Of a DNA stretch of 64,000 bases, positions 19,667 to 38,596 are shown piece by piece. Position numbers and translations under genes: made by a program. Below the pieces are notes generated by a model. The model was not told where the DNA came from. It ran no database searches and was given only the letters and a program-made list of their open reading frames with translations. The stretch's first letter is position 1, and each line of letters opens with the position of its first letter. This DNA comes from Escherichia virus TH55, in sequence record MT446421.1; one strand, given 5' to 3'.

Positions 19667-19966
19667 TTAGAAAGAACCAGAACCTTTAATTGTGTTCTGG
19701 CGACCTTTATTTTCTAATTCAGAATGGTCGATTTCGTATGCTTGTGCTACACCAAAGGCCTTTTTAACTTTAGCTAAAGAGCCTTTAGATGTGACAATAT
19801 TAAAAGTATTGCCTTTAGTAAAATCAACCAAATCCACTTGTACACCCTGTTTACCGAGGCTTGCTACAATAGCATCAACATATTGTTGGTCTAAATTGCC
19901 CTGGACTCCGATTTGAAATGCTTTGGGAGCTTTGGCTTCAGTAATAAATTCTTGATAAGTTTTCAT
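19667..19966 (-). CDS. internal-protein-like capsid-targeted protein (about 99 aa)
   Basis: Start at M14 gives N-terminus MKTYQEFITEA, the capsid targeting sequence of T4 internal proteins; early promoter 19997-20026 upstream. Confidence 0.6.
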   Translation of the reverse strand: MKTYQEFITEAKAPKAFQIGVQGNLDQQYVDAIVASLGKQGVQVDLVDFTKGNTFNIVTSKGSLAKVKKAFGVAQAYEIDHSELENKGRQNTIKGSGSF

Positions 19967-19996
19967 TTTATATTCCATTGTTTGGTTAATAAAATC

Positions 19997-20486: not shown

Positions 20487-20756
20487 TCATTTCTTAGAGT
20501 ATTGACCCATAAGTTTAGCGATATCACCCAATTTCTGATTAAACAAATAATCCACTTCTTTGCCAGATTTATCTACAATTTGCCACTGACCATTTCCTTT
20601 GTTGCCAAAGGTCCAATCACCGACTTTAAATGAAGTTCCATTAACTTTTTTAATAGAAGTAAACTCAAAGCCTTCTTTCTTAGCTAAAAATGCCATGCGG
20701 CTTTCATCTGATTCATTTAATACAGATTCAGCCAAAAATTCTTGATACGTTTTCAT
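20487..20756 (-). CDS. internal protein II-like capsid-targeted protein
   Basis: 89 aa; N-terminal MKTYQEFLAES capsid targeting sequence; between denV and e as ipII/ipIII in T4. Confidence 0.7.
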   Translation of the reverse strand: MKTYQEFLAESVLNESDESRMAFLAKKEGFEFTSIKKVNGTSFKVGDWTFGNKGNGQWQIVDKSGKEVDYLFNQKLGDIAKLMGQYSKK

Positions 20757-20764
20757 ATTTTACC

Positions 20765-21256
20765 TTATTTGTATGCGTCAAAAGTTCCGGTGCGGAAAGT
20801 TTCAATAACTCGTTTAGCCCGGTTCGGAGTCTGGACTTTATACCATCTTGAGTCTGCCAGTTCCTTGGCAGCCGCTTCCCATGATTTAGCCTTCAGCAAT
20901 CGCATACCCTTAGGAAAACCCGCAACACCAGCAACACCCATCTGGAATACCATATTAATGAGTGCACAACGACGAACTTCATCAAGTACATCATAAACAG
21001 GTTTTAAGACAGGATGTCTCAAGATTCCGGCTTTAGCCTTTTCGACCGAACGGTTAAACAGTGTTTCGGCTTCGTGTTGGGTTATACGACCATTACAGAC
21101 GCGACCCATGAGCTTATCGAGCTCGGCGCGAGCAACATCTTTAGATGGGTTCTTAGTTATCAGTTGCCCGATGCCAATGGTCCAATAGCCTTCAGTATCT
21201 TTATACAAATCCAACTTACAACCTTCATCTATGCGTAACATTTCGAATATATTCAT
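20765..21256 (-). CDS. e: lysozyme (endolysin, T4 e)
   Basis: 163 aa; [12 protein letters not shown]...[13 protein letters not shown]...[12 protein letters not shown]...[19 protein letters not shown] matches T4 lysozyme. Confidence 0.95.
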
Positions 21257-21282
21257 AATACCCCCTTATATAGGGGTATTTA

Positions 21283-21741
21283 TTATCCGAAAATTTGAGT
21301 CATTACCTTGTACATCGATTTGCCCATCACATACTGCCATTGACTCGGTTTAATCAGAGCAAATGCATCGAACTCTGGAACCGAACTACCATCCGGGAAG
21401 GTATGATAGGCAGAGCATTTACTATGTCTAAACTGCTCATGCTCAACCGGAACCGTGTACAAAAACAGGTGAAGATTTTTGTTATCTGAATAACGGAACT
21501 CACCCAGGTCCTTTAAGAATGCCGGGTCGTATTGGGTAAACCCGGTTTCTTCTTCGGTTTCACGGATAGCCGCTTCAATCGGGGATTCACCAGCTTCAAC
21601 ATGGCCCTTAGGGATGTCCCATTTATGTGCAGGCATACCTGGTTTACGAGAACAAGTCACACGACCCATGAATAACTCTTTATCTTCAGTCATGAAAATA
21701 ATGCCAGCAGATAATTCTTTCACCTTGTTTTTCTTACTCAT
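21283..21741 (-). CDS. nudE: Nudix hydrolase
   Basis: From M12 about 152 aa; Nudix box GHVEAGESPIEAAIRETEEETG; position downstream of e as T4 nudE. Confidence 0.8.
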   Translation of the reverse strand: MSKKNKVKELSAGIIFMTEDKELFMGRVTCSRKPGMPAHKWDIPKGHVEAGESPIEAAIRETEEETGFTQYDPAFLKDLGEFRYSDNKNLHLFLYTVPVEHEQFRHSKCSAYHTFPDGSSVPEFDAFALIKPSQWQYVMGKSMYKVMTQIFG

Positions 21742-28423: not shown

Positions 28424-28867
28424 TTAAATTTCAAATTCTTTGCGGAAGTTGGAAGCATAAGACTGAACTGATGCTTTGTTGAACCCAAACTCACGCACAA
28501 TCATATCAATAACAGCTCTGCGAGCAGCACCATTAGACATATTAACAGTTTTGAACATATCATAGCATAAATCTTTGTTGCTCATACCGGAGCGTTTAGG
28601 TGCCTTACGTTCAGCTTTTGGTTCAGCTTTAGGAGTAGGTTTAACTTCTGGTTTAACCTGTCCATCATTCAGACCTTTAAAAATTTTACCTGCCAGAGTT
28701 GCCAGTTTAGCAGCTTCGCCACGAGTGATACCAAATACTGCCGGGTTAAATGAAATACCTTCAGCTGTCAGACGTTTGAAGAACATACGGGCTGCGGATT
28801 GTGCTTCAGCTTCAGAAGAGTTGTTTAATGCCAGTTTAACGTACTTAACCAGTTTTGAAGTTTTCAT
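28424..28867 (-). CDS. hypothetical protein, paralogue pair member 1 (about 147 aa)
   Basis: Start at M18 (MKTSKL) downstream of promoter 28910-28938; C-terminal block NGAARRAVIDMIVREFGFNKASVQSYASNFRKEF shared with 28951-29376. Confidence 0.5.
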   Translation of the reverse strand: MKTSKLVKYVKLALNNSSEAEAQSAARMFFKRLTAEGISFNPAVFGITRGEAAKLATLAGKIFKGLNDGQVKPEVKPTPKAEPKAERKAPKRSGMSNKDLCYDMFKTVNMSNGAARRAVIDMIVREFGFNKASVQSYASNFRKEFEI

Positions 28868-28909
28868 TTTATTATCCCGTTTGTTTATTTGGTAACTCAG
28901 TATGGGATA

Positions 28910-28938
28910 ATTATACATTATCCCACCTGGAAGTAAAA
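28910..28938 (-). promoter_or_regulatory. T4-type early promoter-like element
   Basis: Minus strand: -35 TTTTAC, 17 nt, -10 TATAAT plus conserved leader. Confidence 0.45.
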
Positions 28939-28950
28939 CACTTTTCTCAA

Positions 28951-29376
28951 TTATTTTTGAGCTTTGCGGAAGTTGGAAGCATATGACTGAACAACAGTCT
29001 TTTTGATATCATGGGTGTTAACCAGAACATCAATCAGAGCGCGACGAGCTGCACCATCTGCCATATCAATTTCTGCAAATGCCTGGAAGCAAATGTCACG
29101 AGCATTACCAGATTTTGACTGGATTTTTTCTTCTTTAACTTCTTCAATTGGGAATTCAATCATTTCAGCTTGGATTAATTCAATGATAGATTCTTTTGAC
29201 TGTTTGGTGTTTACCTTCAGTTCAGAATTAAGGGACTTGGCGATGGCAACAATCTGGGTTGAAGTCAGATGAATAAGTGCATCTTCACGAATGCAGATTT
29301 CACATACTTCATCGGCAACCATTTTGTTGGTGATGCGGGTAACAGAGAATGCAGAGGTCAGGGTCAGGAAGTTCAT
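28951..29376 (-). CDS. hypothetical protein, paralogue pair member 2 (about 141 aa)
   Basis: Start at M28 downstream of promoter 29428-29456; C-terminal DGAARRALIDVLVNTHDIKKTVVQSYASNFRKAQ. Confidence 0.5.
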   Translation of the reverse strand: MNFLTLTSAFSVTRITNKMVADEVCEICIREDALIHLTSTQIVAIAKSLNSELKVNTKQSKESIIELIQAEMIEFPIEEVKEEKIQSKSGNARDICFQAFAEIDMADGAARRALIDVLVNTHDIKKTVVQSYASNFRKAQK

Positions 29377-29427
29377 TTTATTTCTCCAAAGTTTTGTTTG
29401 ATTCAGTGTGTAACTCAGTATGGAATC

Positions 29428-29456
29428 ATTATGCATCCAGTCAATTCGGATGTACA
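29428..29456 (-). promoter_or_regulatory. T4-type early promoter
   Basis: Minus strand: -35 TGTACA, 17 nt, -10 CATAAT; follows terminator 29495-29516. Confidence 0.6.
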
Positions 29457-29494
29457 CTACTTTTTGAAGAAAATTTCAAATTTATTCGGGGTAT

Positions 29495-30094: not shown

Positions 30095-30124
30095 TAAAAA
30101 AGCCCCAACCTTTCGGAAGGGGCT
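30095..30124 (-). terminator. rho-independent terminator
   Basis: Minus-strand RNA AGCCCC...GGGGCU stem with internal loop followed by U6; between 30162 stop and ATG at 30072. Confidence 0.55.
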
Positions 30125-30161
30125 ATACCTTGTCGGGGTTCCACCTGCAAGGCAAGTGTTC

Positions 30162-30545
30162 TTATCCGCGAGCGAATGCCATTGCAGCGCGTTCGTTAGC
30201 ACGGTCGGTGATGTTCAAGAATTTATCACGAGCGATTTCGATTGGAGCACCAACCCAGTCAGCAGCACCATTACCTGGAGACTGTTTAGGGCGAACCATA
30301 TAAGTTGAAACTTTGGAACCGGCTAGTTTGGCACCAGGTGCCGCGGCATTTTTAACGTCTTTAGCTTTGATGCCAAACCCAGTTACGATACCCCAAGAAA
30401 CGCCATTAACTGGTTTCTTGAACATAACACGGTCACCAATTGAAACACCGGCTTTTTCTGGAGCCACTAAAGAAAATTTACCAGCTTCAGTCAGTACGGA
30501 TTCGGTGATGGTATTGCGATTTAAAAATTCTGCATATGTAAGCAT
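30162..30545 (-). CDS. putative capsid-targeted (internal-protein-like) protein (about 127 aa)
   Basis: N-terminus MLTYAEFLNRNTITE resembles CTS (MKTYQEF..E); minus-strand TATAAATA at 30576-30583; start could be 30557. Confidence 0.5.
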   Translation of the reverse strand: MLTYAEFLNRNTITESVLTEAGKFSLVAPEKAGVSIGDRVMFKKPVNGVSWGIVTGFGIKAKDVKNAAAPGAKLAGSKVSTYMVRPKQSPGNGAADWVGAPIEIARDKFLNITDRANERAAMAFARG

Positions 30546-30575
30546 TTTGTTTTCCATTATTAGGGTTGTTGTTAA

Positions 30576-30583
30576 TATTTATA
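30576..30583 (-). promoter_or_regulatory. late promoter TATAAATA
   Basis: Exact late consensus on minus strand just upstream of CTS-like gene 30162-30545. Confidence 0.5.
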
Positions 30584-30590
30584 TTCCATA

Positions 30591-30650
30591 GTACCGGATG
30601 CACCATCCGCTCGGATTTCTCATACTACCGGACGCACCGTCCGCTCTGGA
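30591..30650. repeat. tandem pair of 34-bp units each forming a 6-bp hairpin
   Basis: TACCGGATGCACCATCCGCTCGGA / TACCGGACGCACCGTCCGCTCTGGA; stems CGGATG-CAC-CATCCG and CGGACG-CAC-CGTCCG differ by a compensatory T-A to C-G change. Confidence 0.55.
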
Positions 30651-30781
30651 AAAACTCCGTAAAAGGGTGCGCCGTTTCAGCTGTGATATAAGGGGGCATC
30701 AACAAATCGTAAAGATTTATTAATGCCAGTCCTTAAACAGGGAACTTCAGTCCGACGACTTACCGGTAGCGACCCGGTTTC

Positions 30782-31021
30782 TCATTCAATTGTAATAGCT
30801 AATTTGACTTTAACAACCTTATAATTGGAATCAAGGTCATTGAATTCCATAAAATTTGTTGCTAATCTGCGAGTCGGGAAACTTAGATATTTATTATGCT
30901 CAGGTGGAGCGGTTAATGCAAACCATGGGACTTGTTTATCATTTTCATCAAACTCATCAAAGCTATAAACCAACTCGTTGTTGGTTATATCCATAACTGC
31001 ATATGATTCACTAATAACCAT
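30782..31021 (-). CDS. hypothetical acidic protein (about 79 aa)
   Basis: ORF trimmed to M16 so it does not overlap tRNA-Arg. Confidence 0.4.
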   Translation of the reverse strand: MVISESYAVMDITNNELVYSFDEFDENDKQVPWFALTAPPEHNKYLSFPTRRLATNFMEFNDLDSNYKVVKVKLAITIE

Positions 31022-32691: not shown

Positions 32692-32946
32692 TTATTTTTT
32701 AGGGATACGATAGTAACGCATCTCAACATCTTTCTGCTTGTGCCACTTTTTGATAAGGTCTTCAGAACCTTTAATAGTAACGATGTCATAGCGACCATCA
32801 TGCGATACTTCAGCACTTAACTGCATGAAGTTGTCTAGTGAACGGCGCAATTCCTCATTAGAAAAACTACCACGCGGGGAACCAACATAAGCAAACTCAA
32901 CTTTTGCATCTGCGGCTTCGTTAATAAATTCTTGATAAGTTTTCAT
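32692..32946 (-). CDS. internal-protein-like capsid-targeted protein (84 aa)
   Basis: N-terminus MKTYQEFINEA (CTS). Confidence 0.6.
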   Translation of the reverse strand: MKTYQEFINEAADAKVEFAYVGSPRGSFSNEELRRSLDNFMQLSAEVSHDGRYDIVTIKGSEDLIKKWHKQKDVEMRYYRIPKK

Positions 32947-33002: not shown

Positions 33003-33245
33003 TTATTTTAAGTCTTCCAGACGTTTTTTCATCTTGGTGCCATTCTTAGCAATCTCGCCGGCATCAGAACAAAGAGCAAGGAGAGCTTTAACTTTACCCT
33101 GGTCGCCTTTAAAAGATGATGCATCTACTGAATCAGCAAGTTCTTTGATACGTGCAAACAGGCGCTCTGCTTCAGCAAGGGCTTGACCAAGTTTAACTTC
33201 CATACCATGGGAAGATTCTGTTATAAATGTTTGATAAGTTTTCAT
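33003..33245 (-). CDS. internal-protein-like capsid-targeted protein (80 aa)
   Basis: N-terminus MKTYQTFITES (CTS-like). Confidence 0.6.
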   Translation of the reverse strand: MKTYQTFITESSHGMEVKLGQALAEAERLFARIKELADSVDASSFKGDQGKVKALLALCSDAGEIAKNGTKMKKRLEDLK

Positions 33246-33253
33246 TTGAAATC

Positions 33254-33526
33254 CTATTTTAGATAAATTGCATATTTTTTATAACCAGCCGTCTCATGGC
33301 GAAGACCCTTGTCATTGGCAAAACGCTCAATGTTATTAATTTGGTTCTGGTCAAGTTCTGAAATGTCAAACGCAAAAAAGTTGCGTTTGTTACCAATTGT
33401 TATATGGTCAGTTAAGTCAATGCTATACAGGTGATTGATATTGTCAATCATAGCTTTGACTGCTTTACTAATTTTTACTTCTTCATTCAGTTGTGACTCG
33501 TTGAAAAATTCATTGAAAGTTTTCAT
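33254..33526 (-). CDS. internal-protein-like capsid-targeted protein (90 aa)
   Basis: N-terminus MKTFNEFFNES (CTS-like). Confidence 0.55.
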   Translation of the reverse strand: MKTFNEFFNESQLNEEVKISKAVKAMIDNINHLYSIDLTDHITIGNKRNFFAFDISELDQNQINNIERFANDKGLRHETAGYKKYAIYLK

Positions 33527-33534
33527 AAGAAACC

Positions 33535-33867
33535 TTATTTATAAAGTTTTGCCAGTTCTTTACGTCCGCGTGCAGACATAATAAATTGTTCATCGCCAAT
33601 TTTAAAATAAGCCATACCGCCGTCAACAGCGATACCAATTTCTTTAGTACCTTCTTTGCCTTTCCACTTGCCACCAGATTTCAGGACAGCTTCAACTGCA
33701 GCTTTGGAATATTTGGACGTTTGAAAACGTTCATTACCAATCTGAAAGAAAACACCATCTGCATTTTTGGTTAAACCAAATTTCAGAGAGCCTTCACTAT
33801 CATCAATTGATTTGGTCTCATTGATGGCGGATTCGGCTAAAAACTCGTTGTAAGTTTTGATGTTCAT
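33535..33867 (-). CDS. internal-protein-like capsid-targeted protein (110 aa; position of T4 ipI)
   Basis: N-terminus MNIKTYNEFLAES (CTS-like); early promoter 33903-33931; adjacent to 57B as ipI in T4. Confidence 0.6.
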   Translation of the reverse strand: MNIKTYNEFLAESAINETKSIDDSEGSLKFGLTKNADGVFFQIGNERFQTSKYSKAAVEAVLKSGGKWKGKEGTKEIGIAVDGGMAYFKIGDEQFIMSARGRKELAKLYK

Positions 33868-35981: not shown

Positions 35982-36656
35982 TTATTTTATTAATGTGTTA
36001 AGTCTTAGCTTAGTCATAAACGGATAACGTTCCAACATTGGCTTTACCCAGTATCGAGGATGCAATTCCTTTTTATATGCTAAGACCAACTCTCGAGCTT
36101 GCTCGACGGTATCAACTCCGAAGTTTTTACACATTTCTTGCCTATCTTTTTCCCACCGGCGCTTTCTCAATTCATCCTGAATCTCTTTATTTTTAAAATG
36201 ACCATTATTGCGAGAATGTTTTGTACCCTTGGTTGGACTGTAATGTCTTCCTTTGACAAACCCATCCGGAATATTTTCCCATGGAAATAGTTTTATCGAT
36301 TTGACACCATTATTAAAGTAAACTTTACCGGTTTGACTTTTAGAAATATTGTCAGCGTGTCTACGTCTTAACCAACCAAATAATTTATTATTGCGTTTCA
36401 AATACTTGCTTGACTGGCACATGGATGTAGCAGCAAAACTTAAACCTGGATTTGTAGGATATATTTTAACCAATAGTTGATGGGCTACATAATGTTCCTC
36501 AGGAGTCAAATCGACCAGATTATCTGGGTCATTTGAACCACCCATACATTTCGGAATGATGTGATGAGATTCTTTATATGAAATCAGGACCCTGTTACGG
36601 GCCCTTTCAATTAACGATGAATATATAAACTGATAATTCAAAGTGAATTTCTCCAT
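35982..36656 (-). CDS. free-standing HNH homing endonuclease
   Basis: 224 aa; HNH core [29 protein letters not shown]; inserted between genes 3 and 2. Confidence 0.75.
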
Positions 36657-37465: not shown

Positions 37466-37911
37466 CCTTTCCATCCTAATTTTTTCAGGCCGTTTTCGGT
37501 TAGAATGCGAAATGTAATACCCATTTTATCTGCGGTAGCTTGTGCAGCTTTCCACTTATCCCTGTTCACAGAATAAGTGTACATTTCGTTTATATAACGT
37601 TTCTTACTGGCTGCTGTATTATTTACAGGAATTTTTGGGGGCTGTGTTTCTTTGAATGGTTTTATTTCAATAAAAAATTGCTGGCCGGTATCAAATTTAC
37701 ACCATATATCCATATAGTAACGGCGCTTTTTGCCATCAGCATTGCTAAAATATGGAATAACAACAGTCTCAGAACCCCATTGAACAACATTGGGGTGAGT
37801 GTCGAGCCACTTGAACATATATGCCTCCCAACTCGACCTGTACTGTATTTTCTTCCAATCACCTTTATATTTTTCTAGATTTGTTGGTTTAAACTTCCCG
37901 GAGTACGCCAT
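37462..37911 (-). CDS. 4: head completion protein gp4
   Basis: About 149 aa from MAYSGKFKP (T4 gp4-like N-terminus and length). Confidence 0.75.
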
Positions 37912-38596
37912 TTTTAAGTACCTTACAATTTTCACCATGCCAACGTTTATAGTTGCCTGGATTTGTTATTTTTCCACAGTGTTCACAGGTGTGACGGGGA
38001 GCATTTTTATTAAGCTCTGATAAACGTTTTCTGACATCATCAGTAATACCTTGCTTTATTTTCTCGCTATGATTTACCAAAACTCTTTCTTTATTTGCCT
38101 TGGATATTTTTGCTCGCCAATCATCTGTAAACACTCTTTCTGATAATTTCTTACAATGTTCTTCAGAGAACTTTTTACCCTTTGCTGCTTCTGACAACTT
38201 TTTGCAATGCTCTTCAGAGCGCGGGCCATATTTCTTACCTTTAAGAGCTTTTGAAATATTTTCACATGTTTGTTTTGAACGTTTACGTCCAGTGTGAAAC
38301 TTAATGGAAGTCTCAACAGCGCGGATGCGCACCCATTCAAATTGTTTGTTATTGTAATTGTTGGAACCCATTAGAATTTTCGCAGCATGTGCTAACGAGT
38401 GATTATCTGGATAAATTTTAACCAATAACAGGTGGGCGACAAAATGTTCAGGAGCGGTAAGCTCGACTAAATTTTCATCAGTATCTAATCCGCCCATACA
38501 TCTTGGAATAATGTGATGTTTCTCTTTGTAACCATCAATGGGTGCTCGATTTTTAGCTCGTTGGATTAAGTTATTGTAATGTTTTAGATAGTTCAT
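37889..38596 (-). CDS. free-standing HNH homing endonuclease with NUMOD3-like repeats
   Basis: 235 aa; HNH core HHIIPRCMGGLDTDENLVELTAPEHFVAH; two repeats SEEHCKKLSEAAKGKK; C-terminal CxxC; minus-strand TATAAATA at 38615-38622; inserted between 4 and 53. Confidence 0.75.
   Translation of the reverse strand: MNYLKHYNNLIQRAKNRAPIDGYKEKHHIIPRCMGGLDTDENLVELTAPEHFVAHLLLVKIYPDNHSLAHAAKILMGSNNYNNKQFEWVRIRAVETSIKFHTGRKRSKQTCENISKALKGKKYGPRSEEHCKKLSEAAKGKKFSEEHCKKLSERVFTDDWRAKISKANKERVLVNHSEKIKQGITDDVRKRLSELNKNAPRHTCEHCGKITNPGNYKRWHGENCKVLKNGVLREV

Follow-up and report, generated by a model that had tools for sequence, protein, structure and literature searches.

A small gene on the minus strand of a T4-like coliphage pairs a late promoter box with an N-terminus resembling the capsid targeting sequence (CTS) of internal head proteins, and it raises the question of whether its product is packed into the virion and enters the next host with the DNA. 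The window analyzed here, the whole stretch of 64,000 nucleotides taken from record MT446421.1, comes from a phage of the genus Gaprivervirus. Over the 1.7 kb compared around the gene it is 100% identical to phage UPEC07, and MN01, DK-13, VR20 and others are 93–98% identical to it.

Gene model and start codon

Mechanical translation of the minus strand yields an open reading frame of 131 amino acids (30162..30557) that begins MENKMLTY. Its first ATG (30555..30557), from which the original prediction had measured the promoter spacing, is in frame only in the window and in MN01. The intervening A-run, ATGGAAAA(A)CAAAATG, carries an additional A in 12 of the 14 carrier genomes, giving the form ATGGAAAAACAAAATG and shifting the upstream ATG to another frame; only the window and MN01 differ, having one A fewer at 30546-30557, which brings the MENK extension into frame. 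In the other carriers a 23-codon ORF starts at the upstream ATG, out of frame, and overlaps the leader region. Because the upstream ATG is out of frame in 12 of 14 carriers, the second ATG (30545) is taken as the true start. The coding sequence then spans 30162..30545 (127 amino acids plus the stop) and consists of a leader followed by a basic globular domain. The 127-residue form is called in every annotated carrier record examined, and the protein start quoted in the original prediction, MLTYAEFLNRNTITE, is that of the second ATG. No Shine-Dalgarno sequence precedes the upstream ATG (30557). A weak Shine-Dalgarno-like GGA (30553..30555, minus strand) stands 7 nt before the true ATG, or 8 nt in most relatives, and is a candidate ribosome site.

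Conservation and distribution

The pattern of variation among the 14 carrier genomes demonstrates a genuine gene that is maintained by strong purifying selection. The gene offers 93 synonymous and 288 non-synonymous sites. Differences occur at 45 nucleotide sites; 43 of these are silent third-position changes, and the remaining two lie within a single codon (V17I). Thirteen of the 14 genomes encode the same protein sequence, and 43 of the 127 third codon positions (34%) vary.

The family is rare. A tblastn search of 50,697 phage records returned 15 carriers, each with at least 98.5% identity, and a word-seeded search of 5.8 billion clusters matched the protein's own cluster alone. An exhaustive HMMER pass over 1.84 billion representatives recovered one fragment and two distant homologues, to which a profile search added a third, for a total of four lineages among billions of proteins. 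IMG/VR, scanned twice, and the JGI metagenomes held near-identical copies only and no further family members. The three distant homologues are 38–41% identical to the target; all lie on contigs with T4-family genes, and in two cases tRNA genes come immediately before, the same arrangement as for the target. Neither Pfam nor PHROG yielded a match for the target or its homologues, which bears out the earlier description of the C-terminal part as unrecognized. The carriers include UPEC, ETEC and Yersinia isolates, and CJ20, RZ and P479, which are close relatives, lack the gene. A literature search retrieved no paper mentioning the protein or its accession numbers, no transcript data for it and no virion proteomics of the carrier phages.

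A CTS-like leader

Work on T4 has assigned the two functions of the targeting sequence to different residues: according to a review of the mutagenesis, targeting depends mainly on leader positions 4 and 7 and processing on positions 8 and 10, and Asp at position 10 stops processing and leaves targeting in place (PMC9026906). The leader of the target (residues 1-15; 30501..30545, minus strand), which ends in ITE15, begins MLTYAEFL and retains Thr3, Tyr4, Glu6, Phe7 and Leu8, so that the aromatic residue at position 4 and the Phe at position 7 are both present; it lacks Lys2 and has Arg in place of Glu10.

A position matrix trained on canonical leaders only recovered six canonical CTS genes in the window, with starts of the MKTYQEF type, and ranked the target seventh of 1312 candidate starts, right behind these six. 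Only 2 other positions among the 80,981 six-frame positions score equally high; the target's leader scores 11 bits and the canonical leaders 28–34. The resemblance thus exceeds chance, and the degenerate capsid-targeting-like N-terminus that had been proposed is confirmed by this rank and by homologues with clearer CTS-like starts. Four of the canonical genes lie in a row beside a 57B-like gene (33535-33867, 33254-33526, 33003-33245 and 32692-32946, minus strand), and two flank denV downstream of the lysozyme gene (20487-20756 and 19667-19966, minus strand). Several of them have a second [L/I]xE site five residues past the first.

The N-termini of the distant homologues are MLTYNEFLEEKSGNNLTE/A in P0005 (MLTYNEFLEE..NLTE), MKSFKEFMLSE/K in P0004 and MYTFKEFLVESELDLITE/A in P0003 (MYTFKEFLVE..LITE), and all retain Tyr or Phe at position 4, Glu6 and Phe7. 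As the CTS-like leaders persist in homologues whose remainder has diverged, the leader is an ancestral, conserved feature, and the comparison of the four lineages shows it, at the level of sequence, to belong to the whole family. In P0003 (contig L015, 1994-2602) roughly 80 extra residues, with an end rich in Lys, Ser and Thr, form a module between the leader and the shared barrel, so that leader and domain behave as separable modules.

The similarity extends to a neighbor in the same window. The target's MLTYAEFL[NRNTI]TESVLTE aligns with MKTYQEFL-----AESVLNE of an IPIII-like protein (start 20756), and a profile comparison of the target family with phrog_8765, a family of internal virion proteins, gave a probability of 90% and an E-value of 1.4e-6 over residues 1-50. 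With the leader removed the same comparison yielded no match to phrog_8765, and the match is therefore driven by the leader. A suspected kinship of the mature domain with the IPIII-like neighbor, prompted by the pattern 'xGD...NG..W.IV', was rejected on a profile probability of 0.2% without the leader. Recent recombination at the DNA level with the 5' end of another internal-protein gene is likewise unsupported, the DNA similarity amounting to a few codons. The T-even internal proteins have just the targeting sequence in common (PMC3012670).

Candidate protease sites

The protein contains only two [L/I]xE motifs, ending at residues 15 (ITE15) and 20 (LTE20). The second lies in SVLTE (residues 16-20; 30486..30500, minus strand), the counterpart of the SVLNE found after the leader in the IPIII-like protein of the window. 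In composition-preserving shuffles, a pair of such sites ending at residues 8-22 arose in 0.19% of cases. At leader positions 8-10, the place of the gp21 motif [L/I]-x-Glu, the target reads L-N-R; the three homologues retain an [L/I]xE site ending at 10 or 11. The retention of Tyr4, Phe7 and Leu8, the Arg at position 10 and the sites at 15 and 20 together predict that the protein is targeted and then cut after Glu15 and/or Glu20. The canonical Glu10 cut position is lost, so processing would lie further in, and the propeptide would be 15–20 residues long.

The precursor of T4 IPI has 95 residues. Its mature form has 76 (PMC3012670), and this long propeptide of 19 residues provides a precedent for a cut beyond position 10 of the kind predicted here; T4 head proteins have propeptides of 10–20 residues (PMC5694885). 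As for the protease, UPEC07, which matches the window, encodes a gp21 protease (Peptidase_S77, E-value 2e-101), a gp22 scaffold (T4_CASP) and GP67, in genes that adjoin the portal gene with which the window ends. A gp21-family protease and a gp22-type core are thereby found, via UPEC07, in the same genome as the target.

T4 core proteins, gp22, gp67 and gp68 among them, likewise have [L/I]xE sites at which they are cut, and they mostly exit the head. The processing of core and internal proteins by gp21 has been reviewed (PMC9026906). By this parallel the target might be an accessory component of the scaffold or core, directed to the prohead and degraded or expelled at maturation instead of being injected. 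We consider that very improbable: there is no [L/I]xE past residue 20, so the globular domain would survive gp21, as internal proteins do, and the gene is dispensable in CJ20, RZ and P479.

Predicted fold of the mature protein

The predicted mature protein comprises residues 21-127 (30165..30485, minus strand), or 16-127 if the cut falls at Glu15 alone. It would have 107–112 residues and a pI of 10.1–10.3, contains neither Cys nor His, and includes a conserved loop, KNAxAP...AGSKV. Gly and Ala make up 29% of residues 21-127, so that the original characterization of the C-terminal part as Gly/Ala-rich holds to a moderate degree. T4 internal proteins are basic too, and the target shares with that class its small size, basic charge, non-essential nature and patchy distribution.

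An AlphaFold model built from a 6-sequence alignment (pLDDT 78, pTM 0.68; a single-sequence model was unusable, with pLDDT 36) has a short N-terminal helix at residues 4-10, within the leader, and a linker at residues 13-20, which holds the cut sites, with pLDDT below 50. Beyond these the same alignment gives a five-stranded SH3-like barrel at about residues 39-111 and a C-terminal helix at 115-126, the predicted makeup of the mature part. Structural matches are generic, comprising KOW, Tudor, chromo, PWWP and ribosomal eL14-type barrels at 10–20% identity, and no Pfam sequence profile of the KOW or SH3-like barrel families matched. The likeness to KOW, Tudor, chromo and PWWP barrels concerns a fold that is very common and gives no reason to assume a shared function.

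The KOW, Tudor, PWWP and eL14-type fold class is nonetheless typical of nucleic-acid- and protein-binding adaptors, and the gene could on that ground encode a late cytoplasmic protein that is never packaged, its small basic KOW/Tudor-like barrel binding phage or host nucleic acid, or a polymerase or ribosome partner, in late infection. The CTS likeness would then be left over from an ancient fusion, or reflect a helix retained for another purpose, as might fit a leader that lacks Lys2 and Glu10 and scores well under the canonical ones, in a gene located outside the internal-protein loci. We think this unlikely, given that the leader is kept in four lineages whose mature parts are about 40% identical, that protease-type sites follow it directly and that the retained residues are exactly those needed for targeting; a relic, moreover, would not stay invariant while 34% of third codon positions vary.

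Late promoter box

An exact T4-type late promoter box, TATAAATA, lies upstream of the gene at 30576..30583 on the minus strand. The original prediction had placed it 19 nt before the first ATG; the box is indeed present, but the spacing (30583..30576 to the first ATG) is 18 nt, and from the true start codon, the appropriate reference given the frame of the upstream ATG, it is 30 nt. The window contains 14 copies of the octamer where 5.7 ± 2.4 are expected, a 2.5-fold excess that none of 100 shuffles reached, whereas the bare ATAAATA is not enriched (21 observed, 24.6 expected), and the full octamer is therefore a signal under selection in this genome. The same box is found 29 nt before the tail sheath gene (gp18) and 48 nt before the portal gene (gp20) of the window. 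Neither the target's copy nor its surrounding 60 nt varies among the 14 carriers, and boxes stand 35–47 nt before the starts of the three distant homologues (GATAAATA, AATAAATA and AATAAATA), the second form being also the one used by the window's lysozyme gene. Taken together, these features suggest that the gene would be expressed late.

It could be objected that the likenesses are coincidental, with the gene transcribed early or at middle times by read-through from the tRNA/rnaD unit and TATAAATA a chance A+T-rich octamer. The gene does lie directly after the tRNA genes and the rnaD-like RNA, on the same strand, and one further TATAAATA of the window (33536-33543, minus strand) is clearly mere codons. 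We judge coincidence improbable, in view of the 2.5-fold enrichment of the octamer and its presence before proven late genes at the same spacing, its invariance in 14 genomes, the near-identical box before all three distant homologues, and the leader statistics (matrix rank, profile match and shuffles).

The copy at 33536-33543 forms the last codons and stop (L-Y-K-stop) of an internal-protein gene and lies 9 nt before the ATG of the next gene, too near for a normal leader. Some copies of TATAAATA in the window may thus be non-promoters. A 12-mer, ATGGAATATAAA, is common to the promoter region of the target (30577-30588) and to a 5' UTR at 19970-19985 (minus strand), that of the internal-protein gene starting at 19966.

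Cassette and rnaC locus

The gene follows the tRNA genes and an rnaD-like RNA directly and on the same strand. In the gene-less CJ20, a close Gaprivervirus, and in about 680 T-even records the same position is occupied by rnaD and rnaC, which are annotated as such in the RB10 record. Alignment with CJ20 and RB10 delimits a cassette of hairpins, promoter and gene (30161..30665, minus strand) that replaces rnaC exactly, from the base after the 3' end of the rnaD-like RNA to the base after the target's stop (30665..30161). The rnaD-like segment itself, resembling species II RNA (about 30666..30785, minus strand), is seen from comparison with L002 and L021 to be retained upstream of the cassette, outside the gene. 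Some carriers (UPEC01, TH41, TH44, EAWsc9 and others) have a different middle in this segment. The cassette occurs with different neighbors on both sides, upstream in TH40 and downstream in P896 and TH54. After the gene, a hairpin with a GNRA loop and a run of T, resembling an intrinsic terminator (30096..30124, minus strand), belongs to the shared backbone and is present also in phages without the gene; a simple terminator scan missed it because its stem has an internal mismatch. The rnaC position is thus a site of cassette exchange.

Between the rnaD-like segment and the promoter lie two tandem 21-nt hairpin repeats, GAGCGGAYGGTGCRTCCGGTA, which are fully paired in all 14 genomes. Repeat 1 (CGGACG-GTG-CGTCCG; 30626..30646, minus strand) shows one compensatory AU/GC pair (6 versus 5 distinct sequences), and repeat 2 (CGGATG-GTG-CATCCG; 30592..30612, minus strand), directly upstream of the late promoter, an AU to GU change in two genomes. 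The 110 non-coding nucleotides before the start codon have about 6 variable columns across the 14 genomes and are conserved beyond the synonymous sites of the gene. Neither the hairpins nor the rnaD-like segment falls within an Rfam family. In L016 a related piece, CCAGAGCGGGCGGTGC (about 2905-2920), stands ahead of the distant homologue.

Control of the kind known from T4 gene e, with GTTTTTCCA pairing to TGGAAAAAC at the ribosome site in read-through transcripts, was considered and found unsupported, as minimum-energy folds leave the ribosome site open (z-scores −0.4 and −0.7). The lysozyme (e) gene of the window itself has AATAAATA followed by a perfect hairpin, CCCCTATATAAGGGGG, adjoining the start (21240-21290, minus strand), which we take to be the arrangement that restricts translation of T4 gene e to late transcripts.

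Elsewhere in the window, two paralogous ORFs with an HNH-type motif (HHIIPxCMGG), resembling homing endonucleases (35982-36656 and 37889-38596, minus strand), sit among head-completion and baseplate genes, separated from each other by two further ORFs. Another adjacent pair of paralogous ORFs (28424-28918 and 28951-29457, minus strand) has a common C-terminal segment and cross-matches phrog_18416 and phrog_9997.

A probable internal head protein

The reading that we favor, with a probability of roughly 0.65, is that its product is an internal head (ejection) protein not described before, made late, trimmed by gp21 and injected with the DNA. The virion-packaged protein proposed at the outset is in this way supported by the family-wide leader, Tyr4 and Phe7, the sites at 15 and 20, the invariant TATAAATA and the presence of gp21, gp22 and gp67. 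Against packaging stand the missing Lys2 and Glu10, the failure to match any PHROG internal-protein family and a location outside both canonical internal-protein loci. We infer late transcription, packaging, cleavage, injection and function alike from sequence.

Under the favored reading, the phage-modified RNA polymerase would start at TATAAATA late in infection, and the 127-residue precursor would be translated from the second ATG. The N-terminal helix M-L-T-Y-A-E-F-L, a diverged CTS, would dock the protein on the gp22 scaffolding core of the assembling prohead. The gp21 prohead protease, presumably unable to cut at position 10 because the residue there is Arg and not Glu, would cut after ITE15 and/or LTE20, much as T4 IPI loses its 19-residue propeptide. 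The mature basic barrel and helix, of about 107–112 residues, would then stay in the head with the DNA and enter the next host.

Once there, its two likeliest roles would be to bind and shield the incoming DNA or to block a host defence protein, as IPI* blocks GmrSD. The basic charge suggests association with DNA; counter-defence is suggested by the patchy distribution and by the IPI* precedent. Such near-total invariance is unusual for either role and is not usually expected of an arms-race effector. A more specific version, in which the product belongs to a new sequence family and acts after injection as a counter-defence effector, with a re-engineered leader cut only downstream and a self-contained cassette that displaced rnaC, is a tentative possibility with the odds against it, and that estimate takes in jointly the idea that the hairpin pair might be a regulatory or processing element coupling the gene to the tRNA/rnaD unit.

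Comparison with known internal proteins

Among the closest known parallels is T4 IPI, likewise a small protein with an N-terminal capsid targeting sequence. Its mature form, IPI*, is a compact domain that is kept in the head, injected and dispensable, and in which N- and C-terminal helices flank beta sheets (PMC3012670). The mature part of the target, however, has no sequence similarity to IPI, and IPI* is absent from its structural matches; the target also lacks Lys2 and Glu10 and lies at the rnaC position, not beside 57B, and IPI* is an inhibitor of GmrSD.

With the IPII/IPIII-type proteins, represented in the window by the phrog_8765 protein (20487..20756) and the five other canonical CTS genes, the target has in common the leader, two successive [L/I]xE sites, a basic character and a similar size. 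The similarity stops at the leader (0.2% for the mature domains), and the target differs by a 5-residue insertion and by its lack of a cleavable position 10. The polymorphic ORFs of the T-even internal-protein locus, according to Repoila et al. (1994) as cited in PMC3012670 and PMC9026906, offer a further parallel, being unrelated small proteins of patchy distribution that, like the target, have the leader alone in common. Those ORFs swap at the ipI locus; the target instead takes the place of a stable RNA gene some 2 kb distant, and with it come its own promoter and a conserved hairpin pair.

The window's six canonical genes match described PHROG families of internal head or virion proteins, and the target and its three homologues match none of them. 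The target accordingly falls outside every described internal-protein sequence family, and it has most of the features of the class that can be tested in a sequence. What sets it apart is the variant leader, the unrelated barrel domain and the unusual insertion site.

Implications

Proteins packed in the T4 head and coinjected with the DNA are a first line against host defences. To our knowledge IPI* alone among them has a known target, which is the GmrSD restriction enzyme. A rare, highly conserved family that bears the leader is therefore a candidate for an unknown counter-defence or DNA-protecting activity, in carrier phages that are under development for therapy. The gene also amounts to a natural experiment on the targeting sequence, with the targeting residues kept and the canonical cut position lost, which may be useful where this tag is employed to load foreign proteins into T4 capsids.
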